This document shows positions 5,802-63,642 of a DNA stretch of 64,000 nucleotides, in pieces; the stretch's first letter is position 1, and each line of letters opens with the position of its first letter. Location: positions 195,487 through 259,486 of the forward strand of contig JBLWXV010000001.1 of the NCBI GenBank assembly GCA_048267245.1, written 5' to 3'. This DNA is from Bacteriovoracaceae bacterium (GTDB lineage Bacteria; Bdellovibrionota; Bacteriovoracia; Bacteriovoracales; Bacteriovoracaceae). The notes under the pieces are model-generated. The model was given only the letters and a program-made list of their open reading frames with translations, was not told the origin of the DNA and did no database searches. Position numbers and translations under genes: made by a program.

Positions 5802-6426
5802 TTAATTGAGCTGGCCTATTATACTTTGATAGTAGGCCATGAAACGCTCTTCCCATTGAAACCGGTTCATCCTTGGCCATAAGAGCTCTGAGATTTATCT
5901 TTAATTCTTTGCGCACCTGATCTTCATCATCTCGCTTTATCTCATAGAGCTTAAACAAGTTTTCAAGTGGTTCCCCGCGCCCTCTTGCAATTGATGTCAT
6001 TAGGTTGGCTCGATTGGCGGCGACAAATTTAATCGTTTCACGCTCTAGAAAGCTTGTCTTCTTAGCGCTTGATGTTAGTTCAATCAGGTAGCTATTTGGG
6101 CTATACTCAATCATCTTTCCCGTGAGGGCATCGGTCCCCCAAGATAGCCAACTCGTAAGATTGAAGATAGCTACCTTATTGAGCGTCTTGTGTATCCTCA
6201 CTTCCTTTGTCTCATGGCCATCTTTCATCACTTTCAAAGTAATATTTGCGAAAGTATCTCTTTTAAAAGATTTTTTAAAAGGAGTTACGCCGAGCAATTC
6301 ACTTCCCTTATAGACCTTCGCGCCTGCAGGTATTGAGGTGAAACTTATCTCATCTGCACTTGGGCTAAAGAGCGTGCCACACGATGATAAAATTATTGCC
6401 GACAAAAGAACTAACACGTAGTTCAT
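5776..6426 (-). CDS. PEGA-domain lipoprotein
   Basis: The lipobox is MNYVLVLLSAIILSSC. The PEGA-like motif is SIPAGAKVYKGSELLGVTPFK. Confidence 0.72.
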   Translation of the reverse strand: MNYVLVLLSAIILSSCGTLFSPSADEISFTSIPAGAKVYKGSELLGVTPFKKSFKRDTFANITLKVMKDGHETKEVRIHKTLNKVAIFNLTSWLSWGTDALTGKMIEYSPNSYLIELTSSAKKTSFLERETIKFVAANRANLMTSIARGRGEPLENLFKLYEIKRDDEDQVRKELKINLRALMAKDEPVSMGRAFHGLLSKYNRPAQLISDLGSSR

Positions 6427-13028: not shown

Positions 13029-13046
13029 GTATTCACGGATTTGAAA

Positions 13047-13245
13047 TTCAAAAAGGCCACTGGGCTTTTTGGACGACGCTTGTTTTGAATCAACGGGATT
13101 TTGCGGAAAAGTTTTTCTTTGAAGAAGATACAAGTGGCGGAGACGGAGTTCAAAAAGGCCACTGGGCTTTTTGGACGACGCTTGTTTTGAATCAATGGGA
13201 TTTCGCGGGAAAGGCTTTCTTTGAAGAAGATACAAGTGGCGGAGA
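13047..13245. repeat. tandem direct duplication (2 x 97 bp, period 102 bp) ending in the 3' end of tRNA-Ser
   Basis: Copies at 13047-13143 and 13149-13245 differ at about 5 positions by hand alignment. Both end in TGGCGGAGA, which in copy 2 is the real 3' end of tRNA-Ser(GCT). Each copy contains the hairpin AAAAAGGCCACTGGGCTTTTT. Confidence 0.9.
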
Positions 13246-13325
13246 AGGCGAGATTTGAACTCGCGGTACCCAGAGGGTACGACACCTTAGCAAGGTGCTG
13301 GATTCGGCCACTCTCCCACTTCTCC
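13237..13325 (-). tRNA. tRNA-Ser (anticodon GCT), class II, CCA encoded
   Basis: The reverse complement is GGAGAAGTGGGAGAGTGGCCGAATCCAGCACCTTGCTAAGGTGTCGTACCCTCTGGGTACCGCGAGTTCAAATCTCGCCTTCTCCGCCA. It has a long variable arm and the anticodon loop TTGCTAA. Confidence 0.93.
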
Positions 13326-13341
13326 GCTGACCTTGTAAAAA

Positions 13342-13429
13342 TGGCGGAGGACACAGGATTCGAACCTGCGGACCCGTTAAGGTCAACGGTTTTCAAAACC
13401 GCCGCTTTCGACCGCTCAGCCAATCCTCC
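13342..13429 (-). tRNA. tRNA-Ser (anticodon TGA), class II, CCA encoded
   Basis: The reverse complement is GGAGGATTGGCTGAGCGGTCGAAAGCGGCGGTTTTGAAAACCGTTGACCTTAACGGGTCCGCAGGTTCGAATCCTGTGTCCTCCGCCA. The anticodon loop is TTTGAAA. Confidence 0.93.
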
Positions 13430-13439
13430 GCGAAGGTCT

Positions 13440-13468
13440 AATATAGGGCCTTGTGCGAGAAAAGACAA
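13440..13468 (-). promoter_or_regulatory. putative sigma70-type promoter for the tRNA-Ser pair
   Basis: The minus strand reads TTGTCT, then 17 nt, then TATATT, ending about 10 nt upstream of the tRNA-Ser(TGA) 5' end. Confidence 0.5.
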
Positions 13469-13483
13469 TTGAGAAATTTCGTT

Positions 13484-16400
13484 TTACTTCATGCGTTGAA
13501 TAAGAGTTTCTATCTGCCTTGTGTCAGGAGCACCAGGAAGAAGCTTTAGGTAGGTCTGGCATGACTCAATGGCGAGACCATTTTGGCCGATTTCGTTGTA
13601 AATGAGACAAAGTTCTTTGTGAACCTCAGGGTTATCCAGCTCCACTTTAAGGGCGCGCAGATACAGCTCTCGCGCAGGCTCGTAGAGTCTTTGATTGCGC
13701 TTAATCCAACCAAGGCTCATCAGGGCCTCGACGTACCTACCATTAATGGAGATCGCCTTTTCAAGCGAAGTCTCTGCGCCTGCAATATCGCCCTGGAGTC
13801 GCTTCACTTCACCCACGATATAGTGGCCAAATTCCAGTGCCGGGTTGAGCTCCACTTCCTTATTAGCGAATTCAAGTCCCTTTTTATAGTCTTTTTGTTT
13901 AACCATCACCTTCGCCAAAAAGTAATTCACCTTTGGAAAAGAGGTCAATCTCTCTCTCACATCAAGAAATGTGGCGTAGGCATCTGCAAAGCGATTATTA
14001 CTCAGTAGATAAGTACCAAGAAGCATGCGAGCTTCCATATCTCCAGGGGCAACCTTTAATAGATCTTTGGAATATTCGATAACCTTATCAATCTTTCCTT
14101 CTAATTTAGCACTATTGACCAGGAATCGATAAAAGCTCTCATCCTTGGCCGAAAGTTTGGCGACCTTTTCTTTATAAGTTTCAAATTGTTTAAGCTGCCC
14201 GTTTCGGTAGTAGTAGGTGGCAATATCACCAAGAAGCCTTGGGTTGTCTGGAAACTTTTCAAGCATATTTCTTAAATAGCCAATCGCCGCATCAGCACTA
14301 TCGAGTTCATAAAGAATCTTGGCATAAGTGGCCACGTAATCAACATTGAGAGGATCAAGTTCGATCGCTCTGGTAATCATCTGTTTGGAATTTTCATACT
14401 TCTTATAGAGAAGATAGATCTTTCCCAATCGAAAAAGGTCATCATCCCTTAAGGGATCCCTCTTAAGTGCCATTGTATAGTTCTTAATGGCCAGGTTTAC
14501 GTTTCCGATTTCATAGTAATATTGACCGAGGTAGGAATTGTACTCGGGAAGATCCTTAAGACTGGTCTGTCCGATTAGAATGACTTGATCTTGCGCTGGA
14601 ACAAACTTTCTTGCTTTAATCAAACCTTCAAGAAATTTAAAGCTCACATTCGCATTTAATGGATAATTTGATTTGAGTTTAGAGAGTGTCCCAAGCGCTG
14701 ATTCAAAATATCCTCGTCGAAGCTGAATATCAGCAAGAAGAAGCTGAGAGGGGATATAAGATTCAAGGATATCCACAGCATTAATGGCATGAGTAAAAGC
14801 AAGCTCCCAATTAGATAGTCTTAACTCTTGCTCAGCCTTTTTCATAAGCTGAATGACTCTTGACTCAAGAATTAATTTCTCGGCGGCATTGCCACCACCT
14901 CGTTGAAGAGCAGCTAGCTTGGATCTAAGTTCATCAGACTCCCGCAATTCAAGAGCGGTGTTAAAGAATTTCACTGCAGTATCAATTTCTTTAATATAGG
15001 CACTCAAAATTCCCATTCGCTCTAAGTACATGGCGGTATAAGTGGGGGATTGATCGGCCTGAAGTTTTTGTACGTTCTCTAGAACCGTCTTAAATTTGGC
15101 AGTGTCTCCCTCACGAACAAGATAGTCTGAGTAGAGCAATAGCAGCTCCACTGATTCACCATAGAACTTACCGGCCTCTTCGAGTGTCTTCTTTGCCTCA
15201 TCAAATTTTTCTTCTAATTCTAAGTAGCGGGCCATGGCGAGATATGCCTTGAGTGGCTTTTTTTCGATTGGCTCAATTCGCTCATAAACTTTCAAGGCCT
15301 GAATGAGATCTCCGGCATCGATAAGAATATTCAAATACGCCGCTAGAATATCCAGTGTTGGATTTCCAAGGCGCAGATAATTTTCTAAGGTTGTTCTGGC
15401 AGTATGTACCTTTCCATTTTTTTGATAGAAAAGGGCCGTCCCTAGCGCTGCATTGGGGTCTGTTAAGACTTTAGATCTCGCAATTTGTGTGAGCTTAAAA
15501 ATTACCTGTCTTGTTTTGAGTGGATCCTGAGCATTTTCCATTACCTCAGCATAAACTCGAAGAAGCCAAGGTAGAGCGTCGGAGCCATCAAATTTATTGG
15601 CGAGACTATCTTTCAATAATTTAATCGACTTTAGTTTATCAACATACTTATATGAATATGTAGCAAGAGCTTCATTGTAGTCCTGCTCTGCCTTTAGAGC
15701 ATTTGGCTTAACATCACCAATTGGAAATTCAACGACCACATTTATAGGCTTAAGTTCAGGGGCCTTCTTCTCTTCATCCATCATTAAGTAAGCAATGAGT
15801 AGTAGGATGATGACTAATATAATGGGTCTTGTTCCCTTGCGAGGTTTCTCTTCTTCTTCTTCGTCCTCATCATTTTCTAAAACAGTCGTGGCCGTTAGCT
15901 GAGTAAGCTTTGACTCCTCTTGCTCTAACTTTTGCTCAAGTTCCTTTTGGGTATCCTTAGCCTCGGTTTTAATTTTTCTCATCACCTCAGAGAGCACCAC
16001 CATTTGAGTTGCTTCTGAAGTATCTACAGGAATTTCCTCTGGAAGAATTTCTTTCTTTGTTTTTTCGTAATCTTCCTCGGGCTCTTCCTCCTCTTTTATC
16101 GCAGCAAGCGCCTTGGGATTCACAATTACAGTCTTATCAACGTTTTGTTGACGGGCCATTGGCCTTTGAAGAATTACTGTTTTCTCAACTCCCTCTTCGT
16201 CGTCTTGATCAGCACTGGTTTCATTTGCCTGCGAGGAGGGAGTAGAATCTGGGCCCTCATTAGCCTCTTCAGATTTCTCTGTCTGATACTTTTCTTCTAG
16301 GGCCTTATAGTCTACCGCTGACTCATCTTCCTTATTGAATACAAATTCAACAAAGTTACTCTTTGTCCCTTCGCCCTCTATTGGTTTCTTATTCTTGGCT

Positions 16401-16759
16401 TCTTCTTGAATATCTTCTTTTGCCTTCTTAGCCTCTAACGCAGCTTCTTGCTCTTCTTGCGCTTTTTTTTCACTCGCTTTCTTTTGAGCTGCTCCTTTGG
16501 CAAGGCTCATGCGTGCAACAGTATGAGAAGTCTGGGTGACTCCCGAAGATTTTTTTTCGCTTTCTTCTTTTGGTGATTCTGTTAGAACTGAAATTAATTC
16601 TTTATGGGCCGATAGGGGGGCCCATTCTCCAATGGGAAATAACTGGGCCTGCTCCTGACCTTTGATGTGACCCTTGTCAAAGAGCTCCCGAACTTGGATT
16701 TTAGTAAAAGGGCCTACGACCCTCCCGCCGGTGAGCCTTAGCCTATATTTGGCTGCCAT
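13484..16759 (-). CDS. large TPR-repeat membrane-anchored protein with GYF-like N-terminal domain
   Basis: 1091 aa. The N-terminus is YRLRLTGGRVVGPFTKIQVRELFDKGHIKGQEQAQLFPIGEWAPL (GYF_2-like). A long acidic/Lys-rich low-complexity linker follows, then one TM helix (ILVIILLLIAYLMM), then about 700 aa of TPR-like repeats. Confidence 0.8.
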   Translation of the reverse strand: MAAKYRLRLTGGRVVGPFTKIQVRELFDKGHIKGQEQAQLFPIGEWAPLSAHKELISVLTESPKEESEKKSSGVTQTSHTVARMSLAKGAAQKKASEKKAQEEQEAALEAKKAKEDIQEEAKNKKPIEGEGTKSNFVEFVFNKEDESAVDYKALEEKYQTEKSEEANEGPDSTPSSQANETSADQDDEEGVEKTVILQRPMARQQNVDKTVIVNPKALAAIKEEEEPEEDYEKTKKEILPEEIPVDTSEATQMVVLSEVMRKIKTEAKDTQKELEQKLEQEESKLTQLTATTVLENDEDEEEEEKPRKGTRPIILVIILLLIAYLMMDEEKKAPELKPINVVVEFPIGDVKPNALKAEQDYNEALATYSYKYVDKLKSIKLLKDSLANKFDGSDALPWLLRVYAEVMENAQDPLKTRQVIFKLTQIARSKVLTDPNAALGTALFYQKNGKVHTARTTLENYLRLGNPTLDILAAYLNILIDAGDLIQALKVYERIEPIEKKPLKAYLAMARYLELEEKFDEAKKTLEEAGKFYGESVELLLLYSDYLVREGDTAKFKTVLENVQKLQADQSPTYTAMYLERMGILSAYIKEIDTAVKFFNTALELRESDELRSKLAALQRGGGNAAEKLILESRVIQLMKKAEQELRLSNWELAFTHAINAVDILESYIPSQLLLADIQLRRGYFESALGTLSKLKSNYPLNANVSFKFLEGLIKARKFVPAQDQVILIGQTSLKDLPEYNSYLGQYYYEIGNVNLAIKNYTMALKRDPLRDDDLFRLGKIYLLYKKYENSKQMITRAIELDPLNVDYVATYAKILYELDSADAAIGYLRNMLEKFPDNPRLLGDIATYYYRNGQLKQFETYKEKVAKLSAKDESFYRFLVNSAKLEGKIDKVIEYSKDLLKVAPGDMEARMLLGTYLLSNNRFADAYATFLDVRERLTSFPKVNYFLAKVMVKQKDYKKGLEFANKEVELNPALEFGHYIVGEVKRLQGDIAGAETSLEKAISINGRYVEALMSLGWIKRNQRLYEPARELYLRALKVELDNPEVHKELCLIYNEIGQNGLAIESCQTYLKLLPGAPDTRQIETLIQRMK

Positions 16760-16816
16760 CTTCTCATAATATCGCAGTCTGAATTTTTACCCAAAGGGCA
16801 AATGCTACCTTAATAA

Positions 16817-17866
16817 TTATGCGAGTTTAGGTCTTCTCAGGTCTTTGTTGAGACCTACCAAAATCATGAAGGTTGAAACGAGAATTGCCACAATGAAAAT
16901 AATCGGGGCAATTTTCCAGATCAATTCAGTATGTTTTTGCTCATATACATTAATCTGCGCGAGAACCAGTGAACCCAAGCTTCCGGGGAGGAATAGGAAT
17001 TGGTAGAGAAAACCAATGATAGCAATACGAGAGCCAATTTCGGCTCGGTTTCTATCTTCTTGGAGAATGAGTGACAAAATAAGCTGACCAATAATCTCAA
17101 CAAAGAAGAGCGTCAAGAGATAGACCTTCACATCCACCTGCTCCCCCGACCACATGGGAAGTAAGACGAGAGATCTCATAAGAGCACAAAGAAGTGAGAT
17201 CAATTCGCGCTTTTCACTTCGCACCAGGCTCCAAGCTGTGAAGAGGAGGGCCATACCGACATAAGACCAGAGTCCAAAGTTGAGCATGGTTGGGTTCACA
17301 TAACTCGTAGCTTGTCCCATTACTTCTGACAATTTAAGGGGAAGTAGGAAGGCAACGATACTCAACTTAAATAGGGTCTTACCTTCGATCAGGCTTCCCT
17401 TTTTATACTCATGCTCAATAAGAAAGAGATGATGCCACAAGATCATCATCATCATCGGACAGGCGAGACTTATAAGTGACGAGCGCTCTATCAAATTAAA
17501 CTGAGATGTTATTAAAGTTGCCCCCAACCCAAGAGGTAGAACCATATCGAGTGATTTTCTATTGGGACCTGGGCGAGCAATAGTGAGTGCGAGGTAATAG
17601 CTTAAAAGCTCAAGCTCCAAAGGCATCTCAGCTAGGGCCCAAATTGAAATAAAGGTAACCATAAATGGCACCTCTTCTCTCTTGCGTGTCAAAAGACATA
17701 GGCTGGCCACCAACAGATAGGGGATGAGCATATAGTTCTTTGAGCAATAAAAGATCAAGGGCGCAATTGCTACAAGCATCGCGAAAACCTCTAGCTTCTT
17801 CACACGCATAAGAACGTAGGAGCAAAAAGAAAAAATGACTACTAGGAGTGATGTTTCATAAGCCAT
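16817..17866 (-). CDS. orphan polytopic membrane protein 7 of the nuoN-downstream array
   Basis: 349 aa, mostly hydrophobic helices, with no recognisable motif. It overlaps the preceding gene by 25 nt. Confidence 0.6.
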   Translation of the reverse strand: MAYETSLLVVIFSFCSYVLMRVKKLEVFAMLVAIAPLIFYCSKNYMLIPYLLVASLCLLTRKREEVPFMVTFISIWALAEMPLELELLSYYLALTIARPGPNRKSLDMVLPLGLGATLITSQFNLIERSSLISLACPMMMMILWHHLFLIEHEYKKGSLIEGKTLFKLSIVAFLLPLKLSEVMGQATSYVNPTMLNFGLWSYVGMALLFTAWSLVRSEKRELISLLCALMRSLVLLPMWSGEQVDVKVYLLTLFFVEIIGQLILSLILQEDRNRAEIGSRIAIIGFLYQFLFLPGSLGSLVLAQINVYEQKHTELIWKIAPIIFIVAILVSTFMILVGLNKDLRRPKLA

Positions 17867-18684
17867 GCTTGAACTTTACTCCTGCTAAAAAATTTAACTG
17901 TTAAAATTGAAAAGTAGAGAAGGGCCATCAAGGGATAGAGCTTTCCAATGCTCACAATGCCGATGACCGGAAGTAATTCCTCTTTTGACTTTAATGAAAA
18001 TGCACTTAGAACGACGAGGGCAAATGCTGTAATAAAGAGATAAACGCTTCCCTTAACTAAAGATATGAAAATTACTAGTGCACAAAGAGCTCTCAGTAAA
18101 CTTATACGCAACATACTTAAAAGTGAAATAACTGTAATCACCCATACGCTGGTATCTCCAAAGTTTTTAAAACTAATTATATTGCTCATATAAATAGCAA
18201 ATATTCCAAGAAACACCGTTTTATCACGTCCTGAGAAGAGAGCAACAAGAGCGATTGCAATTGAGATGGTGTATCTCAAGACTATTGGTGCCGAGCCAAG
18301 AGCGAGTTCAACTCCAAGGCTGTAATTAAGTGACTCAAGAACGCAACAAAGTAATAGTAAACCAATAGACCATAATGCCTCAGTGCGCTCAAAGAGAAAC
18401 TTGGAAAAAATAATCCCCGCCAGTGATAGGTTTATTCCAATAACGGGAGTGAGCATGGCAAAGAGATATGAAAGAGCGAGGACTACTTTGTCATTTCGAT
18501 CTTTAAGTACATGAGAACTCATCAAGACAAGAATCGAAATAGCAACTTCAGCATCGACTGACAGTGGTCGAGATTTAAATAGCCCAAACCAGCTGACTTT
18601 TAGGCAAATATAAACAACGACAGCAATAATCACAGCGATATTATCAAACAACCAATTTTTAAGGTTTTGTGGAGTCAACTTCAT
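17842..18684 (-). CDS. orphan polytopic membrane protein 6
   Basis: 280 aa and hydrophobic throughout. An ATGA start/stop overlap joins it to the preceding gene. The local string INLSLAGIIFSKFLF weakly recalls the LSLAGIPP.GF.SKF motif of antiporter-like Nuo subunits. Confidence 0.6.
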   Translation of the reverse strand: MKLTPQNLKNWLFDNIAVIIAVVVYICLKVSWFGLFKSRPLSVDAEVAISILVLMSSHVLKDRNDKVVLALSYLFAMLTPVIGINLSLAGIIFSKFLFERTEALWSIGLLLLCCVLESLNYSLGVELALGSAPIVLRYTISIAIALVALFSGRDKTVFLGIFAIYMSNIISFKNFGDTSVWVITVISLLSMLRISLLRALCALVIFISLVKGSVYLFITAFALVVLSAFSLKSKEELLPVIGIVSIGKLYPLMALLYFSILTVKFFSRSKVQAWLMKHHS

Positions 18685-19943
18685 ACATGCATCTCCTTTA
18701 AAAGAAGGACAATTGAAGTGATGATGACCAGAAAGAGAAATATTAAATAAGGAAATGATGTTTGACGACTAAGCCAACTTACATCGACTAATTCTTTCCA
18801 ATGTTTCTGTGACTCTGCTCTTTGTGCAGGTTCGATATTACTTTCTAGCCGTGCGGCCATTTTTCCATTTTTAAGAAACGAAGCGAGCAGTTCGCTGTGA
18901 ATGGCAATTAGCATTGGATTCTTTAGCCACAGCCTCATTGCTCCATAAATCATCCCAACAAAGCTAAGCACGATAGCACAAACTACGAATGATGTGGCCA
19001 GTGCCAAATCTCTATAATTTAGAACAATTAATATATTTCCAATAACCGATATACCAAAGAGGCTTGAGAACCCAAGAAATAGATCGCGCTCGTTTAATTG
19101 ACCAGAGTCTACCTGCTCATCAGATATAACTAGACCCTCGGCCAGTATTGAAAAAAGAGCAAATGTTAAAGACCAGGTAATTGCCGCCAGAGGCAAGTAA
19201 AAGCCGAGTCTCATCTCATATACATTTCCCATCAGAAGAATTGGTCCAAAAGTGAGGGCGAAGATTGATGCGAAGAAGACTTTAGGGCTTTGATAGAACA
19301 GACTTCTAAGTTTTAGAGGTGAAGGAAGTAACTCAGTCCTAGAAACCATACACTCTTGAAAGAGCAACAGCGATAAAACAACGGCCATTAATGTCAAAGA
19401 GAGGGGGCTACTCTCACTTAAGAGAAGCATCATTGAGAGACAGCTGCTCATAACTTTAATAGATGACTTAAGATTATGTGCCCAAAAAAGTAGCCTCAGA
19501 GAATAGATAATTGCAACATATTCTCCAACATACTGAATGCCTGGACCACTGATAGTGCCCTTGGAAAAATAAAGAAAACCCAGGGAAAGCGAGAAGTTTA
19601 AATGACCTTCTCTATCTGGTTCAGAGAGATATTCCTCGAGAACACTGATAACAAGAGCAAAGTATGCAAAAGGTCTTAATTGCGGTGGCAGCAGCATCGT
19701 AGCGCCCAAAAGAAGCAAGGAAAGAGGCTTAATGTTTTTTGACAACACTATTGCTGCAATAATTAATATTATCGAGTGAGAGATAATTTCGATAAATTCC
19801 GCCGCAAAAGGAAGTCCCAAAAGAGCAAGAGCTCTATAATCTTTTGTTCGCACTGACAAAGCGAGAAAGAGTGCGGCCACAATAAGGTAACCTAGGATTA
19901 CAGCCTTATCCATCTGTGCCAGACTACTCATCATCATGACCAA
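18681..19943 (-). CDS. orphan polytopic membrane protein 5
   Basis: 420 aa with many hydrophobic helices. It overlaps the upstream gene by 8-20 nt, depending on which of the MVMMM Met codons is used. Confidence 0.6.
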   Translation of the reverse strand: MVMMMSSLAQMDKAVILGYLIVAALFLALSVRTKDYRALALLGLPFAAEFIEIISHSIILIIAAIVLSKNIKPLSLLLLGATMLLPPQLRPFAYFALVISVLEEYLSEPDREGHLNFSLSLGFLYFSKGTISGPGIQYVGEYVAIIYSLRLLFWAHNLKSSIKVMSSCLSMMLLLSESSPLSLTLMAVVLSLLLFQECMVSRTELLPSPLKLRSLFYQSPKVFFASIFALTFGPILLMGNVYEMRLGFYLPLAAITWSLTFALFSILAEGLVISDEQVDSGQLNERDLFLGFSSLFGISVIGNILIVLNYRDLALATSFVVCAIVLSFVGMIYGAMRLWLKNPMLIAIHSELLASFLKNGKMAARLESNIEPAQRAESQKHWKELVDVSWLSRQTSFPYLIFLFLVIITSIVLLLKEMHV

Positions 19944-20169
19944 AGTCCTTAAAATGAGTCACAACGTAAGCGATTAACCAGATTAGGTAGATGAAAATGA
20001 CTTCGTATCCACTGACACTTGAATCTGGTCGATAAAAATAAGTTCTCATTAAAAGAAATAGAGATGAGAGGCAAAGAGCTATCGCCATGACTCTATTTTG
20101 AAGATCATTTGACTTATACCACTTCACTAATGCTATTAAAGCAGCTCCAAGCAAGATGAATGTATTCAT
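19924..20169 (-). CDS. orphan small membrane protein 4
   Basis: 81 aa with about 2-3 hydrophobic helices. An ATGA overlap joins it to the preceding gene. Confidence 0.5.
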   Translation of the reverse strand: MNTFILLGAALIALVKWYKSNDLQNRVMAIALCLSSLFLLMRTYFYRPDSSVSGYEVIFIYLIWLIAYVVTHFKDFGHDDE

Positions 20170-20582
20170 TTGCGCCTCAGCTTTGGAAGAATTCCGAGAA
20201 TTGCCCCTAGGAAAACGACACTAATGAGCCACAAGTCTTCTGTAGTTGATTTTTGATTGGTCTGGCTCACAACTGCTCTAAGCGTCGAGCTCGAATTTAA
20301 TACGTAGAATCCAGAAACGATAAGAATCAATGAAGTATAGAGGATAAAGTCGGTTGAGCGTGCACTTGGCAAGCGAGTTAAATCCTTCTTCTTAGTTCCA
20401 AGAACAATAATGGCCGGAACGATAAAAAAAGCAATTAAGTAGACGAGGTTAAGCTCAATTCCCATCTGGCTTGGTACTAAGCATAGTAACTGTAGCATCA
20501 AGAGCAAAACTAGGTTTTGACCAGGCTTTTCTATGGCAATAAACATTGAACCAATGATTGTTAGCAAGGCAAGTTCAATCAA
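20166..20582 (-). CDS. orphan membrane protein 3
   Basis: The track ORF is 20166..20660. I prefer the TTG at 20582-20580, which forms a TTGA start/stop overlap with the upstream gene stop (20581-20579). This gives about 138 aa of hydrophobic helices. Confidence 0.5.
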   Translation of the reverse strand: MIELALLTIIGSMFIAIEKPGQNLVLLLMLQLLCLVPSQMGIELNLVYLIAFFIVPAIIVLGTKKKDLTRLPSARSTDFILYTSLILIVSGFYVLNSSSTLRAVVSQTNQKSTTEDLWLISVVFLGAILGILPKLRRK

Positions 20583-21382
20583 AATCGCCCCCCAGTCACA
20601 ACGAAAATTCCCATTGATACGATGAATGCAACAATTGAAGTTGGTACAAATCTCGTCCAAATTGCCTTTTCAATTATCTCTTCACTCAGTGGAAAGAATA
20701 CCTTTGAAAATAATGACATCACTTTTTTTGCCACAAATAGATAGATGATTAAGTAGGCACCTGCACCTATCGTTTGAAGAATATCATTATAAATTGAGTC
20801 CATATTGAATACCCCGATCGCAGGTATTCCCCCAAGAAAGTAGAATAGTCCAAGTAGAAGGGCCGTATTAAGATGAAATTCAGAGCTAAGCTGGTATGGA
20901 AGTAGCCCATTCATATGCTTTTTGAGCTGGATATTTTTATACTTAATAAAACAAAGCCAATAAAAAAGAATGGCATTTACTGGATCATAGACTAGCCCAA
21001 CGCGAGGTATGCCTAGACTAGAGAGATTGGCTTGTCTCGATGTAATTTCGGCCAAGTTAAAGGTGCCGTAGCGAACAAGGGCCGACATTAAGGTTAGGGG
21101 AAGGACAATATCCATAACCATATTTACTCGGCTTCTCTCTAGTTTTTGCGACGTCATGGTTTGAAGATAGAAAATTACCAAGAGAATAAGCAGTGTACCC
21201 GTTTCTCTGTAATTTCCACTCACAACATCAATATAGCCAAAGGGAAGCGTATTTAAACTTAGGTAGAAAAGAAGAAAACTAAGAGTAAGAAGTAGATGTC
21301 CACTTCTATGAACTCCCTTTGACCAAAAAAAGGAGATCCAACCAGTGGTAAGGGCCTTTAATACAAATGCGACAGCACTCAT
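20579..21382 (-). CDS. orphan polytopic membrane protein 2
   Basis: 267 aa and hydrophobic. It starts 1 nt after the stop of the preceding ORF. Confidence 0.6.
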   Translation of the reverse strand: MSAVAFVLKALTTGWISFFWSKGVHRSGHLLLTLSFLLFYLSLNTLPFGYIDVVSGNYRETGTLLILLVIFYLQTMTSQKLERSRVNMVMDIVLPLTLMSALVRYGTFNLAEITSRQANLSSLGIPRVGLVYDPVNAILFYWLCFIKYKNIQLKKHMNGLLPYQLSSEFHLNTALLLGLFYFLGGIPAIGVFNMDSIYNDILQTIGAGAYLIIYLFVAKKVMSLFSKVFFPLSEEIIEKAIWTRFVPTSIVAFIVSMGIFVVTGGRF

Positions 21383-21383
21383 C

Positions 21384-21734
21384 TTATCTGCCCCCTTTAC
21401 TTGTTTCGTAAATATGGGAGATCAATAATATTGCTGTAGGAGAGAGCAACAAGAGCACAGGAAGTGTCTGCTCCATAGTTGGTGTTCTCTCGTTTCTAAA
21501 TAGAAGAAAGAGAACAAAAACTAAAAGTATAAGAAAGATGACCATCGAGATCAGCAGTTGCATCGGGACGCTTCTTCCATAGGAGTGGAGGAAAGCCGTC
21601 ATCTTCACATTAGATTTGAATCTTCTAGATCTATAAAGATAGAGCAAAGACGAAAGGACACCTACAAGAAGATAGGTGCCCCATTCGATGAAAACTATAT
21701 TATTGAATAAAGAGAGCTGCTCCACTGGCGGCAA
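21384..21734 (-). CDS. orphan membrane protein 1, overlapping the 3' end of nuoN
   Basis: 116 aa with about 3 hydrophobic helices. The only ATG/GTG starts (21734 and 21725) lie inside the last 35 nt of nuoN. Confidence 0.5.
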   Translation of the reverse strand: MPPVEQLSLFNNIVFIEWGTYLLVGVLSSLLYLYRSRRFKSNVKMTAFLHSYGRSVPMQLLISMVIFLILLVFVLFLLFRNERTPTMEQTLPVLLLLSPTAILLISHIYETSKGGR

Positions 21735-52847: not shown

Positions 52848-53508
52848 GATATATTTCCTCTTATTTGATTAGTTTTATCTAACGCCATGAAGATAGGCAA
52901 GGAATTGAGAATCATAGGTTCTTAGGTCTAGTTCCTTTATTATTATTAATTGTTGTTGTTGAAGTGTGGATAAGTGGAATTCTTCTCTAACATGCTGATT
53001 TGATAGATATTAGTATTTTATTATTGGTGTATTCGACCTAGGCCTTTGTGGCGCTTCATTTTAAGTTGTTTCGCAGATCATTTGCTTTTATGGGAAAACT
53101 GCCGTCTTACTGACTTTTTACTCACATCGTTTTCCACACATATTCGTAGATTTTTTTGGCCAGGTGTCAAAGGCCTCGTGACTACTCAGTTACCCACATT
53201 TTTATCCCCATTGTGGATAACTAGGCCTGTGGATAAGGCCCCATGTTAAAAGATGTTACTCACAATCCACGGCCTTTGTGGATAAGAGTTGTAAGTGTAC
53301 GTAATTTATAACTTTTTTATCATGAAACAAGGCCTTGGGGCCGTGGAAAGGCCGTGGATAACGTTGTGGGTTGTAAGGTAAGGTGAGGTTATTTTTACTT
53401 TATCAACATGGCCATGTGGATGCGGGGCCCAAGAGACGATTTTTGACACAAAAAAGGCCCTCGCTTGGGAGGGCCTGTGAGTAAGTCTAGGTTATTTGTG
53501 AATTTTAT
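52848..53508. other. oriC: chromosomal replication origin (oriC), dnaA-dnaN intergenic
   Basis: Perfect DnaA boxes TGTGGATAA lie at 52965, 53212, 53228 and 53277. One-mismatch boxes lie at 53130 (TTTTCCACA), 53190 (TTACCCACA), 53202 (TTATCCCCA) and 53353 (CGTGGATAA). A weaker box is at 53415. AT-rich tracts at about 52936-53030 are a candidate unwinding element. Confidence 0.88.
53449..53476 (-). terminator. rho-independent terminator downstream of dnaA
   Basis: The minus strand reads AGGCCCTC-loop-GAGGGCCT followed by TTTTTTGTG, 33 nt after the dnaA stop. Confidence 0.75.
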
Positions 53509-55928: not shown

Positions 55929-57398
55929 ATGTCAGAGCAAAAACGGATTTTTTTAGCAGTTGCCCTATCTGGTTTAGTCCTCTTTGGGTGGCAAGCTTAC
56001 TTTATGCCCAAGAAGGATGCGGTAACTCAAACTGCGCCAGTCTCTCAGGTTGAGGAACTTAAAGAACGTGAGGCCAGCAGTGAGGTTGTCGCTACTGAGA
56101 CAGTTACGACTGCCCCTATAGAACCATCTAAGGTATCTCAGTCTGAATCTCTCTCTCTTGTTAAAGAGGGCAATGTCTACAATTTTCAAAATGACCTTAG
56201 CGTACAGAATATTGTCGATCCCAAGGCCGTTTTTGATTTCCAGGCCATTACAGACAAAGCAAATCCATTTCAGATTAAAGTCCTAATTAACGATTCACCT
56301 CGCGATCTTAATTTCACTATTTCTGAGAAGACTGAAACTTCTGTTAAAGGAAGAGATGAAGGACTTGGAATTGATCTTCATGCTCAAATTCTTGAAAATG
56401 GCCGCTTTGATTTAAAGCTAATTTCTGAAAACGCCTATACCTATCGCTTTCTCTTTCGCTCAACTGCAAAGGAGCTAGAGAATCACCAGGTGAGCCAATT
56501 TATTTTCTACTCTAAGGATGTTGAGAGACACAAAGTAGGTGATGAGTCTTCTGGTGATGGTAGTGCCAAATGGTTTGGTCTCGATTATAACTTTCACCTC
56601 TTTGCCTTTATTTTTAAAGATAAAGTTGCTGCTCGCTACCACACTGATAAAGCCGGTCGCTTTGTTGTTGATACAGTTTCTCCAATTAAAGAATTCTCTG
56701 GTGATCTTGTTTTCACAAAGAAAAATTATGATGAGCTTGTGGCCATTGGTGACAATCTTAATCTCTCTGTTGATTTTGGTTTCTTTGGCGTACTGGCCGT
56801 TCCAATTCTTAGAGGACTTCAACTCTTTTACGATTGGTTTCCAAATTACGGTGTAGCGGTCATTCTTCTCACATTGGTTGTGCGTACTCTTATGTTCCCG
56901 CTTCAGTTTAAAAGCTTTAAGAGTATGAAGAAGATGCAGAAGTTGCAGCCTGAACTTGCTAAGCTCAAAGAGAAGTTCTCTGATGATCCTCAGCGCATGC
57001 AACGCGAGACCATGGAACTCTTTAAGAAGGCCGGGGCTAACCCATTGGGCGGCTGTCTACCTATGCTTCTTCAAATGCCAATTTTCTTCGCCTTCTATAA
57101 GGTTCTCTACAATGCAGTAGAACTTGTTGGGGCTCCATTCTACGGCTGGCTCACCGATCTTAGTGTGAAAGATCCCTACTATGTACTTCCAGTGCTTATG
57201 GGTATTGCTATGCTTGGTCAACAAAAGCTCACTCCCACAGCGAGCGTTGATCCAACTCAAAAGAAGATCATGATGATTATGCCGATTGTTTTCACTTTCA
57301 TCATGAAGGATCTTCCGGCCGGTCTTAATCTCTATATTTTCGTATCTACTGTGTTTGGTATCATTCAACAGTTGATCGTTTATAGAACAATCGATTAG
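55929..57398 (+). CDS. yidC: membrane protein insertase YidC
   Basis: It has one N-terminal TM helix, a periplasmic domain, and the conserved core GGCLPMLLQMPIFFAFY. Confidence 0.92.
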   Translation: MSEQKRIFLAVALSGLVLFGWQAYFMPKKDAVTQTAPVSQVEELKEREASSEVVATETVTTAPIEPSKVSQSESLSLVKEGNVYNFQNDLSVQNIVDPKAVFDFQAITDKANPFQIKVLINDSPRDLNFTISEKTETSVKGRDEGLGIDLHAQILENGRFDLKLISENAYTYRFLFRSTAKELENHQVSQFIFYSKDVERHKVGDESSGDGSAKWFGLDYNFHLFAFIFKDKVAARYHTDKAGRFVVDTVSPIKEFSGDLVFTKKNYDELVAIGDNLNLSVDFGFFGVLAVPILRGLQLFYDWFPNYGVAVILLTLVVRTLMFPLQFKSFKSMKKMQKLQPELAKLKEKFSDDPQRMQRETMELFKKAGANPLGGCLPMLLQMPIFFAFYKVLYNAVELVGAPFYGWLTDLSVKDPYYVLPVLMGIAMLGQQKLTPTASVDPTQKKIMMIMPIVFTFIMKDLPAGLNLYIFVSTVFGIIQQLIVYRTID

Positions 57399-57406
57399 GT
57401 CTTAAT

Positions 57407-58906
57407 GTGAGCGGCGACTATCAAGATTTATCTCCTATAGTTGCCGCTAGCACTTCTCTTGCTAGTGCCGCGGGCATTGGTATCGTAAGAATTTCTGGTT
57501 TTAAATCTCTGAATGATCTTCAAAAACTGTTCTCAAAAAATCTTGGTTCTATAGGACCAGGCCGGTTCTATAGGACCAAAGTTTTCGATTTAGAATCTCA
57601 CCAAATTGATGATGGCGGAGTGGTCTTCTTTAAGGCGCCCCAATCTTATAATGGTGAGAATATTCTTGAAGTTCACATGCATGGCAACCCCGTGCTCATG
57701 AGACATTTTATTCACTCTATTGTTGAGTTGGGTATTGCAAGACACGCTCTCGCTGGAGAATTTTCTTATCGCGCTTTTTTGAATTCTAAGCTCACCCTTT
57801 CTCAAGTGGAGGGGTTGGATCTGGTACTTACCTCTAAATCTCTAAAAGGAATTCGTCAGGGCATTAGTTCTCTGGATGGTGAACTTCATCAGGCATTTTC
57901 TGAACTCTATAGTAAGTACCTTCGTTTTAAGTCCGCTATAGAACTTAATATTGATTTTTTGGAGGATATTGGTGAAGAGGGCGGCACCCAGGAGCTCAGG
58001 GATTCCTACCAAGCGCTCAATTCTCAAATTATCGCTCTTGCCAAGCGTACTGTTAGCGACGCCAGTTCTATTTTGAGTCCAAAAGTTGTCCTTCTCGGTA
58101 AGACTAATGCCGGTAAGAGCACACTCTTTAATTTTCTCCTTGGAACTGAGCGAAGTATTGTTTCGAGTGAAGAGGGTACAACGCGCGATTACGTCAGTGA
58201 AAATTTCTTCGTTGGAAGTGACCAGTATTCTTTAGTAGATACGGCCGGTGTTCGGATGGGCGCTGGTAAAATTGAAGAGGAAGGAATTCGCCGGGCGTCC
58301 GAAATTTTTGGCCGCGCTTTTTATAAAATTCTAGTGATCAATCCTCGCTTAGATTTTGATATTGAAAGTATGCTGGATCTCGGAGAGCTCGACCTGATCG
58401 TCTTTTCACACGCCGATGACAAAAATTTCAAAACTAATCTTTCTCGATTTAATGATTTTTTTCCTGAAGTGAAACGAGTTAGTTTTTGTGGATTAAGTGG
58501 TTCTATAGAACCACTTTTTCTCGGTCCTATAGGACCAAACTCTAGTGTTGAATCTGGTTCTATAGGACCAGAAAATGCTGTTCAAATAAGTGGTTCTATA
58601 GGACCAAAAATTCGCAATTCTGGTTCTATAGGACCGGCCCGCAACTCAAATGAAATTTCTTCGCTGGTTGCCTCTAAGTATCAGAAATTACTAAGTAATG
58701 ATCCTCTACTAATCGATCGTCAGTGCCAGTTGTTGCGCTCGCTTGTAGGGGAGTGTGCTGATATTGAAAATTTGCTCACCGGCGATATTGCAATTCTCTC
58801 TGGAGAGGTTAATCGCTTGGGGAGAAAGTTGACTGAATTGATCGGAATTATTTCTCCCGACGATGTACTTCATAATATTTTCAATAACTTCTGTATTGGT
58901 AAATAA
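57407..58906 (+). CDS. mnmE: tRNA modification GTPase MnmE, with repeat-derived insertion
   Basis: It has a GTG start. The motifs are G1 GKTNAGKSTLFN, G3 DTAG and the C-terminal FCIGK. An extra segment of about 45 aa (SGSIEPLFLGPIGPNSSVESGSIGPENAVQISGSIGPKIRNSGSIGP) is encoded by palindromic repeats. Confidence 0.9.
   Translation: MSGDYQDLSPIVAASTSLASAAGIGIVRISGFKSLNDLQKLFSKNLGSIGPGRFYRTKVFDLESHQIDDGGVVFFKAPQSYNGENILEVHMHGNPVLMRHFIHSIVELGIARHALAGEFSYRAFLNSKLTLSQVEGLDLVLTSKSLKGIRQGISSLDGELHQAFSELYSKYLRFKSAIELNIDFLEDIGEEGGTQELRDSYQALNSQIIALAKRTVSDASSILSPKVVLLGKTNAGKSTLFNFLLGTERSIVSSEEGTTRDYVSENFFVGSDQYSLVDTAGVRMGAGKIEEEGIRRASEIFGRAFYKILVINPRLDFDIESMLDLGELDLIVFSHADDKNFKTNLSRFNDFFPEVKRVSFCGLSGSIEPLFLGPIGPNSSVESGSIGPENAVQISGSIGPKIRNSGSIGPARNSNEISSLVASKYQKLLSNDPLLIDRQCQLLRSLVGECADIENLLTGDIAILSGEVNRLGRKLTELIGIISPDDVLHNIFNNFCIGK
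57545..57577. repeat. two copies of the 14-bp palindrome-like element GGTTCTATAGGACC (inside mnmE, N-terminal region)
   Basis: Copies lie at 57545-57558 (frame 0, read as GSIGP) and 57564-57577 (frame +1, read as RFYRT). Confidence 0.9.
58499..58635. repeat. five copies of the 14-bp palindrome GGTYCTATAGRACC (inside mnmE)
   Basis: The copies are at 58499 (GGTTCTATAGAACC, perfect palindrome), 58523 (GGTCCTATAGGACC, perfect palindrome), and 58556, 58592 and 58622 (GGTTCTATAGGACC). Spacings are 24, 33, 36 and 30 nt, so all are in frame. Confidence 0.92.
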
Positions 58907-59001: not shown

Positions 59002-59017
59002 TGTTCCACGTGGAACA
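59002..59017. other. parS: parS centromere-like site
   Basis: TGTTCCACGTGGAACA is a perfect 16-bp palindrome. It matches the consensus tGTTnCACGTGnAACa. It lies 12 nt upstream of the mnmG start. Confidence 0.85.
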
Positions 59018-60873: not shown

Positions 60874-61511
60874 GTTTTTGCGAAAAGTACCTGGATATCG
60901 TAAACACGGTCTATGCTGGTCTTAATTTAACTCGAATTCTGGATCCTGAAGAATTTCGTATTAAGCAGTATGAGGATTCCCTACTTCCCTTTAAAGAGTC
61001 CGAACACTTTAGATCCCTAGTTGAGAGTAGGGACATTATTGTGGATGTGGGATTTGGTGGAGGCTTTCCCTTGCTTCCGCTGGCCCATGAAATTGGACCC
61101 AAGACATTTACGGGCTTTGAAGCAAGAGCAAAGAAGTCAAAGGCAGTCAATGACATTGCTAAGCGCATGGGTCTTGGTTATGTTCAGACCCATCACTACC
61201 GTGTTGAAGAAATCCTATTTGATCAAAAGTGCATGATCACCTTTAAGGCCGTGGGTCGCATTGGTGAATTCCTAGCGCGCATCAATACAACTGAGTCTGC
61301 CGAAGTCGTGGTGGTCTTTTATAAGGGTCCCGAGATTCTTCCCGACGAGCTCAAGAACTTCCCTAGGGATTGGGAGATCTATCATCAAGAGCAACTCATG
61401 CTTGAAGGTACTGAGGGTAGAACCTTTGTTTATGCAAAAAAGAAAAATGTTCCACGTGGAACAAAGAATTCTTTAAGCAAAAACCTTGTCAAACTCTCAC
61501 TGCTTGTTTAA
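60870..61511 (+). CDS. rsmG: 16S rRNA (guanine527-N7)-methyltransferase RsmG (GidB)
   Basis: It has the SAM motif DVGFGGGFPLLPLA. The position after mnmG, with a 4-nt overlap, also fits. Confidence 0.88.
   Translation: MSFCEKYLDIVNTVYAGLNLTRILDPEEFRIKQYEDSLLPFKESEHFRSLVESRDIIVDVGFGGGFPLLPLAHEIGPKTFTGFEARAKKSKAVNDIAKRMGLGYVQTHHYRVEEILFDQKCMITFKAVGRIGEFLARINTTESAEVVVVFYKGPEILPDELKNFPRDWEIYHQEQLMLEGTEGRTFVYAKKKNVPRGTKNSLSKNLVKLSLLV
61448..61463. other. parS: parS centromere-like site (inside the rsmG 3' end)
   Basis: This is an identical TGTTCCACGTGGAACA palindrome. It is translated as NVPRGT within rsmG. Confidence 0.85.
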
Positions 61512-61550: not shown

Positions 61551-62369
61551 ATGGCTAAAATTATTGCTTTAATGAATCAGAAGGGCGGCGTTGGTAAGAC
61601 TACTACAGCTGTCAATCTTGCGGCGTGTCTAAGCGTGGCTGAAAAGCGCGTGCTATTAGTTGACTTAGATCCTCAGGGAAACGGAAGTATCTCAGTTGGT
61701 CTCAATAAAGATAATTTTGCAGACGCTAATATCTATCACGCCTTAATTGGTGAAAAAGATATACGCGATTGTATCTATAAGACTGAACTCCCTTTCTTGG
61801 ATGTTTGCCCCTCAGAAAATAACCTTTCAGGCGCTGAAATTGAACTTGTGAGCGAGTTTGCACGTGAGGCTAAGCTCAAGGCTGCATTCTCTACAGTTCA
61901 AGCGCTCTACGACTATATTCTCATCGACTGTCCACCTTCACTTGGACTGCTCACGGTGAACGCACTTAACGTCGCCAATTCTTATATTGTTCCTATGCAA
62001 ACTGAGTATCTTTCAATGGAGGGCTTGGCCCAGCTCATGAGAACGGTGACTCTGATTAAGAATTCTCTCAATCCCGCGCTTGAGATGGACGGCATTGTGC
62101 TCACGATGTTTGATTCACGCGCCTCTCTTAATAAACAAGTGGTGGAAGAAATTAAAAATCACTTTGGCGCCAAAGTTTTCGAATCAATTATTCCAAGAAA
62201 CGTGAAGCTTGCTGAATGTCCTTCATTTGGTAAGCCCATTATTCTCTACGATATTGAATCAAAAGGCAGTGAAGCTTATTTGAATTTGGCCAAGGAAGTG
62301 CTTTTGAAGGAACGCCAAAAGCAAGCCGGAGTTCAACAAGATCTCGGCATCTCTCCACAAGCACATTAA
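61551..62369 (+). CDS. parA: chromosome partitioning ATPase ParA (Soj)
   Basis: It has the deviant Walker A motif NQKGGVGKTTTAVNLA, plus DLDPQGN and IDCPPSLG. Confidence 0.93.
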   Translation: MAKIIALMNQKGGVGKTTTAVNLAACLSVAEKRVLLVDLDPQGNGSISVGLNKDNFADANIYHALIGEKDIRDCIYKTELPFLDVCPSENNLSGAEIELVSEFAREAKLKAAFSTVQALYDYILIDCPPSLGLLTVNALNVANSYIVPMQTEYLSMEGLAQLMRTVTLIKNSLNPALEMDGIVLTMFDSRASLNKQVVEEIKNHFGAKVFESIIPRNVKLAECPSFGKPIILYDIESKGSEAYLNLAKEVLLKERQKQAGVQQDLGISPQAH

Positions 62370-62379
62370 GGATTAATTT

Positions 62380-63300
62380 ATGGCCAAGAAAATAGCACTA
62401 GGTAAAGGTATCGCTTCACTCATTCAAGAAACTCCCAACGAGATTCTCAAGCAGAGTTTAAAAACTGTTGAAGAGGAAGCGGCAAAAGCAAATAAAGCAG
62501 AAGTTGTGGCCACTGGCCCTTTGATGATTCCTATTTCAAAGATTAAGGCGAACCCAGGTCAGCCCAGAAAAATCTTTAAGGAAAAGGAACTCGAAGAACT
62601 TTCACAATCAATTAAAGAAAACGGAATTATTCAGCCACTCGTTGTGGTTGAAATGACTGACGGTGGCTTTGAACTCGTCGCTGGTGAGCGCCGTATGCGC
62701 GCAGCCAAGAGAGCGGGTCTAGAGCACGTTCCAGTCGTGGTGAAAAAGGCGACCGATAAAGAGAAGATGGTCATGGCCATCATTGAAAACGTTCAGCGCA
62801 GTGATCTCAACTGTGTTGAAGAAGCGCTTGCGTATTACCAATTGATGGAAGACTTTCAACTTACTCAAGAAGAAGTTGCTAAGAAGCTTGGTAAGGAGCG
62901 CTCAAGTATCGCCAACTACCTGCGCATTCTTAAACTTCCAAGAGAAGTAATTGAAAAGCTTCAAAAAGAAGAGCTCTCATTTGGTCACGCGAAAATTCTC
63001 GCAGCACTAAAAGAGCGCGAACAGGTTATTCGCCTCGCTAATGAGTGTGTACTCAATTCACTTTCAGTGCGTGAACTCGAAGCACTTTCAAAGAAGACTA
63101 ATAAGCCGAAAGTGGCAAAAGAGACAAATCCCTTCTATAATGAAAAGCTTGAAGACTGCCGTGAAAAGTTAGAGCGCTCCACAGGCTTTCACTTCCAAAT
63201 TAAGTCTAAGAAGACGGGACAAGGTCAAGTTGTGCTTAAATTTAATAATGAGGCAGAATTCAATGATATTTATGAATATCTGCTCAAGCGCAGCAATTAG
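62380..63300 (+). CDS. parB: chromosome partitioning protein ParB (Spo0J)
   Basis: The conserved stretches are NPGQPRK and GERRMRAAKRAGL, plus the HTH region TQEEVAKKLGKERSSIANYLRIL. Confidence 0.93.
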   Translation: MAKKIALGKGIASLIQETPNEILKQSLKTVEEEAAKANKAEVVATGPLMIPISKIKANPGQPRKIFKEKELEELSQSIKENGIIQPLVVVEMTDGGFELVAGERRMRAAKRAGLEHVPVVVKKATDKEKMVMAIIENVQRSDLNCVEEALAYYQLMEDFQLTQEEVAKKLGKERSSIANYLRILKLPREVIEKLQKEELSFGHAKILAALKEREQVIRLANECVLNSLSVRELEALSKKTNKPKVAKETNPFYNEKLEDCREKLERSTGFHFQIKSKKTGQGQVVLKFNNEAEFNDIYEYLLKRSN

Positions 63301-63306
63301 GAAGTC

Positions 63307-63642
63307 ATGAAAAAAGATTCAGAGATTAGTGCGATCATTGAAGAGGGTTGTAAATTTGAAGGCAACCTCTCTTTTAATGGCGTAGCGCGTATCGCCGGCA
63401 TTGTGAATGGAAGTATCTTTTCAAATGACACAGTGATTATTTCTGAGGGTGCCGTGATTAACGCGGACATTAATGCCAATATCATTCTTATCTCAGGTGC
63501 AGTGAAAGGTAATATCAAGGCCTCTAGCCGTGTGGAGATCATTAAGCCCGCACGCTTTGAGGGCACTATCACTGCTCCAAGTCTAATCGTGGAGGAGGGC
63601 GTTATCTTCCACGGAACCACGAAAATGAAGGATAAATCCTAA
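63307..63642 (+). CDS. bactofilin (DUF583 polymer-forming cytoskeletal protein)
   Basis: 111 aa with the beta-helical repeat pattern FEGNLSFNGVARIAGIVNGSIFSNDTVIISEGAVINADINANIILISGAVKGNI. It starts 6 nt after parB. Confidence 0.85.
   Translation: MKKDSEISAIIEEGCKFEGNLSFNGVARIAGIVNGSIFSNDTVIISEGAVINADINANIILISGAVKGNIKASSRVEIIKPARFEGTITAPSLIVEEGVIFHGTTKMKDKS

Follow-up and report, generated by a model that had tools for sequence, protein, structure and literature searches.

Why should mnmE, the gene of a universal tRNA modification enzyme, carry seven copies of the same short palindrome a few hundred base pairs from a centromere site? The question is raised by a 64-kb stretch of Bacteriovoracaceae DNA (contig JBLWXV010000001.1; 'the window' hereafter means this whole stretch), in which a first-pass annotation made from the sequence alone had noticed the repeats next to parS and oriC and had offered three alternatives: an array of binding sites tolerated inside a gene, a small palindromic element colonising coding sequence as Rickettsia palindromic elements (RPEs) do, or expansion driven by slippage. 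The analysis reported here favours the first of these. The repeats are probably a cis-acting DNA element, namely an array of sites for a putative dimeric DNA-binding protein at the origin/centromere; an RPE-like element was rejected, and slippage, which accounts for the change in copy number in some species, is insufficient because the motif is maintained while the spacers diverge. The unit is a 16-bp palindrome, TGGTYCTATAGRACCA, with the variants T6>C and A9>G and a further GCCCC half-site, and it is origin-proximal throughout the order Bacteriovoracales.

An exact search of the window returned seven copies of GGTYCTATAGRACC, compared to none in 100 dinucleotide-preserving shuffles. All seven lie inside one open reading frame (ORF), mnmE, and the remaining 57 kb hold no exact copy, as had been noted at first reading, where two perfect palindromes and five hybrids had also been distinguished correctly: the copy at 58499 is GGTTCTATAGAACC, that at 58523 is GGTCCTATAGGACC and the other five are GGTTCTATAGGACC. 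The unit had been taken to be 14 bp long. Since a T precedes the motif in five of the seven copies and an A follows it in six, the unit with its flanking bases is 16 bp, T-GGTYCTATAGRACC-A (also written as TGGTYCYATRGRACCA, with the GCCCC variant kept separate). Site 3 and its flanks (58498–58519) form a perfect 22-bp palindrome, AAGTGGTTCTATAGAACCACTT, whose AAGT/ACTT flanks are kept in two close relatives, and this points to a length of more than 16 bp for some sites. Allowing two mismatches to GGTYCTATAGRACC yielded two extra matches in the window, at 15073 and 56112. The latter, in yidC, had been passed over as a mere partial match at about 56117 and is instead a genuine variant, TGCCCCTATAGAACCA (GCCCCTATAGAACC at 56112–56125 when flanking bases are counted), in which GCCCC replaces GGTYC as a second half-site type. 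Together with its mirror image TGGTTCTATAGGGGCA it occurs 31 times in related loci, where 0.011 occurrences are expected, and it stands at the same place of yidC in three of them (L113, L050 and L091) and about 20 residues upstream in a fourth (L082). With it, the window has eight sites (Table 1).

Six of the seven mnmE copies are in phase 0 and are translated as GSIGP, GSIEP or GPIGP, and the one at 57564, which is in phase 1, as GRFYRT, both as first described. The six in-frame copies had all been assigned to an insertion in MnmE; only five form it, the sixth being N-terminal (residues 47–51). Within this insertion the spacers between sites 3 and 7 measure 10–22 nt and are unrelated to one another, and the only period reported by Tandem Repeats Finder, a weak one of 36 (2.5 copies, 79% match), derives from the motif cores.

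Is it the peptide or the DNA that is conserved? Pentapeptides of the form G-[SP]-[IM]-[GE]-[PA] were found at the equivalent place in 15 aligned orthologues, down to 40% identity and in varying copy number. The closest MnmE homologues are from Bacteriovoracales (Halobacteriovorax, Bacteriovorax and many metagenome-assembled genomes; phylum Bdellovibrionota), and each of the 120 best homologues has at least two such pentapeptides. A functional G-S/P-I-G/E-P peptide, with codon identity arising from recent tandem duplication or gene conversion, would fit repeats that are in frame, that number from 1 to 11 in mnmE across related loci, whose number rises with MnmE length in the 120 best homologues (r = 0.87) and that in some species have perfect periods of 24, 27 or 30 bp over 8–10 units, typical of slippage. 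A peptide repeat should, however, vary in its synonymous codons, and this is not what we found: 388 of the 415 G[SP]I[GE]P pentapeptides in mnmE orthologues (93%) are encoded by the exact string GGT YCT ATA GRA CCA, or 206 of 233 when two per locus are dropped to correct for ascertainment, as against the 1–2% predicted from codon usage in neighbouring genes. Taken singly, ATA is used in 412 of the 415 (background 20%), GGT in 411 (37%) and CCA in 385 (45%), and the wobble base of the codon preceding the pentapeptide is T in 407. The first-pass annotation had held that GSIGP repeats with divergent codons would speak for selection on the protein alone; the opposite was observed, with invariance that reaches the neighbouring wobble bases and spans orthologues of 35–45% identity.

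The pattern of permitted change is also that of a DNA dyad. The alternatives S/P and G/E, non-conservative as amino acid swaps, are the mirror-image Y and R of the palindrome, and variants with one mismatch cluster at positions 6 and 9, which mirror each other (T6>C and A9>G); there one change is silent (CCT>CCC) and the other replaces Ile by Met, at about equal frequency; no Leu or Val variant at the pentapeptide Ile was present among the one-mismatch copies. Intergenic variants, 16 of 19, fall at the same preferred position as the coding ones. The degeneracy of this dyad is hence symmetric and independent of coding context, as expected for an array of operators of 14–20 bp.

Copies outside the peptide frame bear this out. 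Besides the phase 1 copy in the mnmE of the window, mnmG has copies, and non-coding copies occur in the parB–bactofilin spacer (as pairs or triplets, with at least one in every spacer longer than 45 bp), downstream of the bactofilin gene, in the dnaA–dnaN spacer (L091 and L106) and in the mnmE–mnmG spacer. In one locus (L075) MnmE has neither insertion nor pentapeptide, and five sites lie instead after the stop codon, in the mnmE–mnmG spacer (5862–5990); another (L040) is intermediate, with one site within mnmE and two in the spacer. A comparison of the window with three relatives (65–78% nucleotide identity) gave the same picture as a footprint: the motifs, the out-of-frame one included, are invariant but for exchanges of S with P and of G with E, while the spacers have drifted apart, with insertions and deletions, and copies are gained and lost. 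Site 1 is the same in the three close relatives save for one Y switch (S to P, in L114), and out-of-frame site 2 is unchanged across all four close relatives compared. Where the four sequences agree in the amino acid, they also agree in the codon in 8 of 9 alignment columns inside motifs, compared to 77 of 271 outside (p = 4e-4). Flanks past position −1 are weakly conserved or not conserved, so that the unit is 16 bp and occasionally 20–22 bp.

Codon invariance, out-of-frame and intergenic copies and symmetric degeneracy thus give strong support to the earlier claim that DNA, not protein, is what is conserved: it is the nucleotide sequence, rather than the peptide, that is under selection. With copies in phase 1, mnmG, yidC and spacers, an array outside the gene in L075, mutually unrelated spacers with their weak period in the window, and an insertion that is predicted to be disordered, the explanation by a functional peptide is already largely refuted and we regard it as very improbable. 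The prediction of disorder comes from the AlphaFold2 model, in which the insertion of about 50 residues has a predicted local distance difference test (pLDDT) score of 25–35 and no secondary structure and is placed between a strand (residues 356–359) and a helix (residues 414–429). A structure model had been proposed earlier as a check on whether MnmE can accommodate such a loop; judging from this one, MnmE simply tolerates the insertion, and the peptide is most probably a tolerated by-product.

Table 1. Coordinates, in the window, of the repeat sites, their host genes and the neighbouring origin and centromere features. The start of the exact GGTYCTATAGRACC copy is given for sites 1–7.
Feature	Coordinates	Strand	GGTYCTATAGRACC start	Description
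mnmE (tRNA modification GTPase)	57407..58906	+		499 aa; TrmE_N, MMR_HSR1 and MnmE_helical domains; C-terminal FCIGK
MnmE insertion	58490..58642	+		aa 362–412; sites 3–7 plus spacers, after the G domain; predicted disordered
Site 1	57544..57559	.	57545	TGGTTCTATAGGACCA; in frame, G47-S-I-G-P51, loop of the N-terminal domain of MnmE
Site 2	57563..57578	.	57564	CGGTTCTATAGGACCA; phase 1, G-R-F-Y-R-T; 19 bp from site 1
Site 3	58498..58513	.	58499	TGGTTCTATAGAACCA; GSIEP
Site 4	58522..58537	.	58523	CGGTCCTATAGGACCA; GPIGP
Site 5	58555..58570	.	58556	TGGTTCTATAGGACCA; GSIGP
Site 6	58591..58606	.	58592	TGGTTCTATAGGACCA; GSIGP
Site 7	58621..58636	.	58622	TGGTTCTATAGGACCG; GSIGP
Site 8	56111..56126	.		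Variant TGCCCCTATAGAACCA in yidC, N-terminal variable region, T-A-P-I-E-P, about aa 62
dnaN–dnaA intergenic region, probable oriC	52848..53508	.		660 bp; DnaA-box cluster at 52965–53408
parS 1	59002..59017	.		Canonical, TGTTCCACGTGGAACA; mnmE–mnmG spacer, 367 bp from site 7
parS 2	61448..61463	.		Canonical; rsmG 3′ end
parA, parB and bactofilin gene	61551..63642	+		parA 61551–62369, parB 62380–63300, bactofilin gene 63307–63642

We then asked how widely the motif occurs. A scan of 185,579 species genomes for the two-copy pattern CTATAGRACC-N1-31-GGTYCTATAGRACC, which detects paired copies only, gave 112 loci, of which 103 had origin-block genes and came from Bacteriovoracales-type genomes. All Bacteriovoracales pairs lie in or immediately beside the block dnaN–dnaA / rnpA–yidC–mnmE–mnmG–rsmG–parA–parB–bactofilin(–atp operon), the motif being kept to the letter in about 100 species of the order; in a Halobacteriovoraceae metagenome-assembled genome (L079) the pair is just past the atp operon that follows the bactofilin gene, between the genes for a secreted protein and an uncharacterised 304-aa protein. 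Three complete or near-complete chromosomes (3.72, 2.48 and 2.22 Mb) have one pair locus each, at this block. The related loci, 746 kb in all, contain 437 exact sites compared to 0.011 expected: 382 in mnmE and 55 elsewhere in the block, the latter in the parB–bactofilin spacer (17), next to mnmE at the end of a locus (8), downstream of the bactofilin gene (7), in the mnmE–mnmG spacer (7), in mnmG (5), between parA and parB (4), on the dnaA side (4), in rsmG (2) and in parB (1). The comparison with mnmE orthologues that had been suggested as a check on lineage specificity therefore places the motif in the order Bacteriovoracales and not in a single species. The rest of the scan output consisted of isolated matches due to chance and of simple repeats with a 9-bp unit, (GGTCCTATA)n, from planctomycete-like contigs (L003 and L031), and a paired-motif scan of IMG/VR gave four matches (L115–L118), all in collagen-like GPIGP genes of phage contigs, on which a viral or mobile origin was rejected. 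These paired matches outside Bacteriovoracales are coincidental.

The same survey bears on whether a small selfish or mobile palindromic element has inserted in frame, like RPEs, repetitive extragenic palindromic (REP) elements or miniature inverted-repeat transposable elements (MITEs). The motif is palindromic, repeated and present in several genes (mnmE, mnmG, yidC and the 5′ region of parB) as well as in spacers, as such an element would be. Its pairs, however, are restricted to one block of about 20 kb in some 100 species, with none elsewhere in the complete chromosomes and none in the remaining 57 kb of the window; its positions are orthologous between species; and the 16-bp unit has no terminal repeats or target duplications. 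We saw neither the genome-wide dispersal, judged on pairs, nor the element length of tens to about 150 bp that mark RPEs, REPs and MITEs, and copies in viral contigs were confined to the collagen-like genes, so that an origin of this kind has next to no probability in our estimation.

What the sites have in common is their place on the chromosome. The dnaN–dnaA spacer of the window has four perfect and five one-mismatch DnaA boxes within 450 bp, and the array is 4.1–5.3 kb from this cluster and 367 bp from the nearer parS, in good agreement with the 4–5 kb and about 370 bp first estimated. All motif sites cluster near oriC and parAB in the manner of parS. Both parS sites of the window are perfect, and most Bacteriovoracales loci have parS at the same two positions, one between mnmE and mnmG and the other within the 3′-terminal part of rsmG: in 72 related loci parS is found in the mnmE–mnmG spacer, 263–396 bp (median 312) past the last mnmE site, and rsmG has 38 parS sites (at most one mismatch) across the related loci. 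The main array thus stands about 0.3 kb to the origin side of the first parS, and past it come mnmG, rsmG, parA, parB and the bactofilin gene. Retention of canonical parS at two conserved places implies that the motif adds to ParABS and does not replace it. A large accessible intergenic region near the origin has been reported for Bacteriovorax, in a chromatin study that does not mention the motif site (PMC11789641), and the dnaN–dnaA spacer may be that region.

Could the motif simply be a second, divergent ParB site, bound by the chromosomal ParB or by a paralogue as in the case of Noc and its binding sites (NBS), with the array as part of the centromere? It has the length and symmetry of parS; its half-site TGGTYCTA shares T1, G2, T4, C6 and a degenerate fifth position with the parS half TGTTNCAC; the array adjoins parS and parAB in every species; and the conserved block encodes no sequence-specific DNA-binding protein other than DnaA and ParB. 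On the other hand, three of the eight half-site positions differ from TGTTNCAC, central ones included, and the consensus TGTTNCACGTGNAACA is not matched. Since perfect parS is retained at its two places, the specificity of ParB looks canonical. Each locus, moreover, gave a single ParB match, and rsmG abuts parA with no noc-like paralogue in between. From these sequence features we consider a ParB site unlikely.

Some neighbouring features deserve mention in their own right. In the window the bactofilin gene starts 6 bp after parB. Motif sites border it in 26 of 37 related loci, though not in the window, and the link between the two is only positional. In one locus (L059, 797–1840) GGTTCTATAGGGGC alternates with GGTTCTATAGGACC, read as GSIGAKEKSGSIGPKKE repeats in an open frame that is continuous with parB, and there the array would seem to lie within an N-terminal extension of ParB. 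In another (L030, 1427–3590) a 2.3-kb mnmE–mnmG gap contains two ORFs (329 and 387 aa) that split the array from the usual position of parS; judged by eye only, they are cysteine-synthase-like and cystathionine-lyase-like, with no obvious regulatory domain. Far from the array, the window has a YcaO-domain ORF (9699–10757) followed, at 10889–21734, by ORFs with no Pfam match (319, 147, 280, 81, 267 and 116 aa), which are unrelated to the motif.

How might such an array work? Each palindrome would be bound by a dimer of a putative sequence-specific protein, for which the window offers no obvious gene candidate. GntR-type TGGT..ACCA operators, the SinR site GTTCTYT, the FRT arm, the NrdR box and the Geobacter LexA box were compared with the motif; none matches it convincingly, and they are leads at most. 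Centre-to-centre spacing is 24, 27 or 30 bp in the coding arrays, and in non-coding pairs 27 bp is commonest (15 of 31), so that adjacent dimers, mostly 27 bp apart, could build a nucleoprotein complex beside the ParB–parS centromere, with tandem duplication altering the copy number. The likeliest roles would be to organise, anchor or insulate the origin/centromere, for example as an accessory centromere, or to act as a roadblock that bounds the movement of ParB or SMC from parS towards oriC; a boundary role is suggested by the sites on both outer sides of the parS–parAB zone in many species. Titration or regulation of a replication or partition factor, by an array that doubles in copy number as soon as initiation has taken place, would be less likely.

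Several points weigh against such an array of protein-binding sites. Its function is deduced from position alone; the genome-wide evidence is drawn from paired copies, with single-copy counts outside it; and in the window every exact site is coding, so that a role of the MnmE peptide is formally possible there. Pfam detected no DNA-binding domain in 20 smaller ORFs of the window (81–352 aa), which encode metabolic and membrane proteins. Moreover, 72–78% of exact sites pair two different halves, a C-type (GGTCC) and a T-type (GGTTC), and a hand-calculated chi-square of about 43 against independence of the halves is indicative only, as the sites are not phylogenetically independent. Mixed half-sites with a possible preferred orientation are not predicted by a simple symmetric dimer model. 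Read along the strand that leads away from oriC, 22 of the 23 non-coding mixed sites to its mnmE side give GGTCCTATAGAACC, and those to its dnaA/dnaN side, being mirrored (4 of 4), do so too, while in the clade of the window the mixed sites of mnmE are of the opposite type. The numbers are small, and they hint at a polarity of the sites. Lastly, the array folds far more stably than shuffled sequences on both strands (z of −9.9 and −8.8).

This last result would also suit an RNA-level element, with hairpins or copy-to-copy duplexes in mnmE mRNA or an antisense RNA controlling stability, translation or termination, and so would the copy after parB, which often has an extended stem followed by a T-run and resembles a terminator. 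Strong predicted folding is, however, an automatic result of repeated palindromes. Pairing is kept on neither strand: sorted by Y4 and R11 on the sense strand, 381 sites comprise CA 218, CG 69, TG 57 and TA 37, the non-pairing class being the commonest and both mixed classes exceeding independence. Copies are found, besides, to either side of oriC as well as within it, and in units that are transcribed differently, and no Rfam match was obtained, a permissive Rfam search over 52–64 kb giving a sub-threshold miRNA match only. Control at the RNA level is accordingly a quite unlikely explanation. As a separate observation, the copy right after the parB stop codon (e.g. L032 at 6505, L078 at 5638 and L097 at 6504) mostly has the variant sequence GGTCCTATGGGACC, longer flanks and a run of T (AAAGTGGTCCTATGGGACCACTTTT), and from its sequence this copy could double as an intrinsic terminator.

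Taking the binding-site array as the preferred reading, we tentatively propose, as a more specific form of it that is possible but somewhat short of an even chance, a second centromere-associated system in which a dedicated protein would occupy dense TGGTYCTATAGRACCA arrays that bracket the ParB–parS loading zone beside oriC, and could either anchor the origin, for instance to a bactofilin scaffold or a cell pole, or bound the sliding of ParB and SMC during the unusual, filamentous and multi-chromosome cycle of the predator; the fixed distance to parS would then have forced the loop on MnmE. Predatory bacteria of this kind have a poorly understood chromosome cycle, with a non-replicating attack phase followed by multiple rounds of replication inside the prey. 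The motif points to a putative DNA-binding factor and a cis-element at the origin/centromere across this order of predators, and its constant distance of about 0.3 kb to parS leads to testable predictions on ParB spreading and on the boundaries of SMC loading. It also provides an unusually clean natural case of overlapping codes, in which an array of DNA sites shapes an essential, universally conserved protein. The marks of the array on the protein are an insertion whose length varies, exchanges of S with P and of G with E that reflect the symmetry of the dyad, and an Ile fixed to ATA, a codon used at 20% in the neighbouring genes; if the reading is true, a function at the DNA level dictates protein sequence throughout a whole order. 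For annotation this calls for caution, since a DNA element may be what lies behind a peptide repeat or a 'low-complexity insertion' in a housekeeping protein.

Several known systems resemble this array in part. RPEs, which are selfish, 100–150 bp long and dispersed genome-wide, likewise place palindromic DNA in frame in housekeeping genes, where it is tolerated in surface loops, but the motif is 16 bp long, positionally conserved at one region and also non-coding. A simple tandem repeat is not what the window contains, although some other species have exact periods. Plasmid partition systems such as sopC/SopB, parC/ParR and tubC/TubR have tandem short units, each with a binding site, on which a multi-dimer partition complex assembles; in sopC of the F plasmid, a 43-bp unit that carries a 16-bp inverted repeat is present 12 times. 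Those arrays, however, are non-coding and located on plasmids beside their own partition genes, whereas the motif array is chromosomal and mostly coding, with variable spacers and no dedicated partner gene nearby; unlike those of plasmid centromeres or iterons, its neighbours are housekeeping genes of the origin block and canonical parAB.

The chromosomal systems come closer. In Bacillus subtilis, RacA with its ram sites and Noc with NBS provide a second family of palindromic sites beside parS, which marks the origin-proximal domain and through which a dedicated protein anchors or organises the chromosome. The motif is likewise a palindrome family distinct from parS in the origin-proximal domain, but ram and NBS spread over hundreds of kb to Mb and the motif stays within about 10–20 kb, its paired sites being at the origin block only; the sequences are unrelated, and the block has one ParB match and no noc-like paralogue. 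In Myxococcus xanthus the bactofilin gene bacM directly follows parAB, the same gene order as in the window (PMC5703909), and BacNOP–PadC is a precedent for a bactofilin scaffold that positions the ParB–parS complex; no sequence-specific DNA motif other than parS is described there. With parS itself, where ParB is loaded as a CTP-dependent clamp, the motif shares the form of a 16-bp palindrome within a few kb of oriC and parAB that is sometimes coding (one parS of the window is in rsmG), and four fixed half-site positions and a degenerate fifth; its sequence differs, canonical parS is present alongside, and parS has neither dense arrays of 5–11 copies at a 24–30 bp period nor a peptide-repeat insertion. 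Our literature search, which covered the DNA words, the peptides, and Bacteriovorax or Halobacteriovorax in connection with parS, oriC or MnmE, found no description of the motif. Altogether, arrays of origin-proximal palindromes are a known kind of feature, represented by parS, ram, NBS and sopC; what appears to be new is the motif itself, together with its order-wide conservation, the dense packing of the copies and their position within the gene of a universal enzyme.

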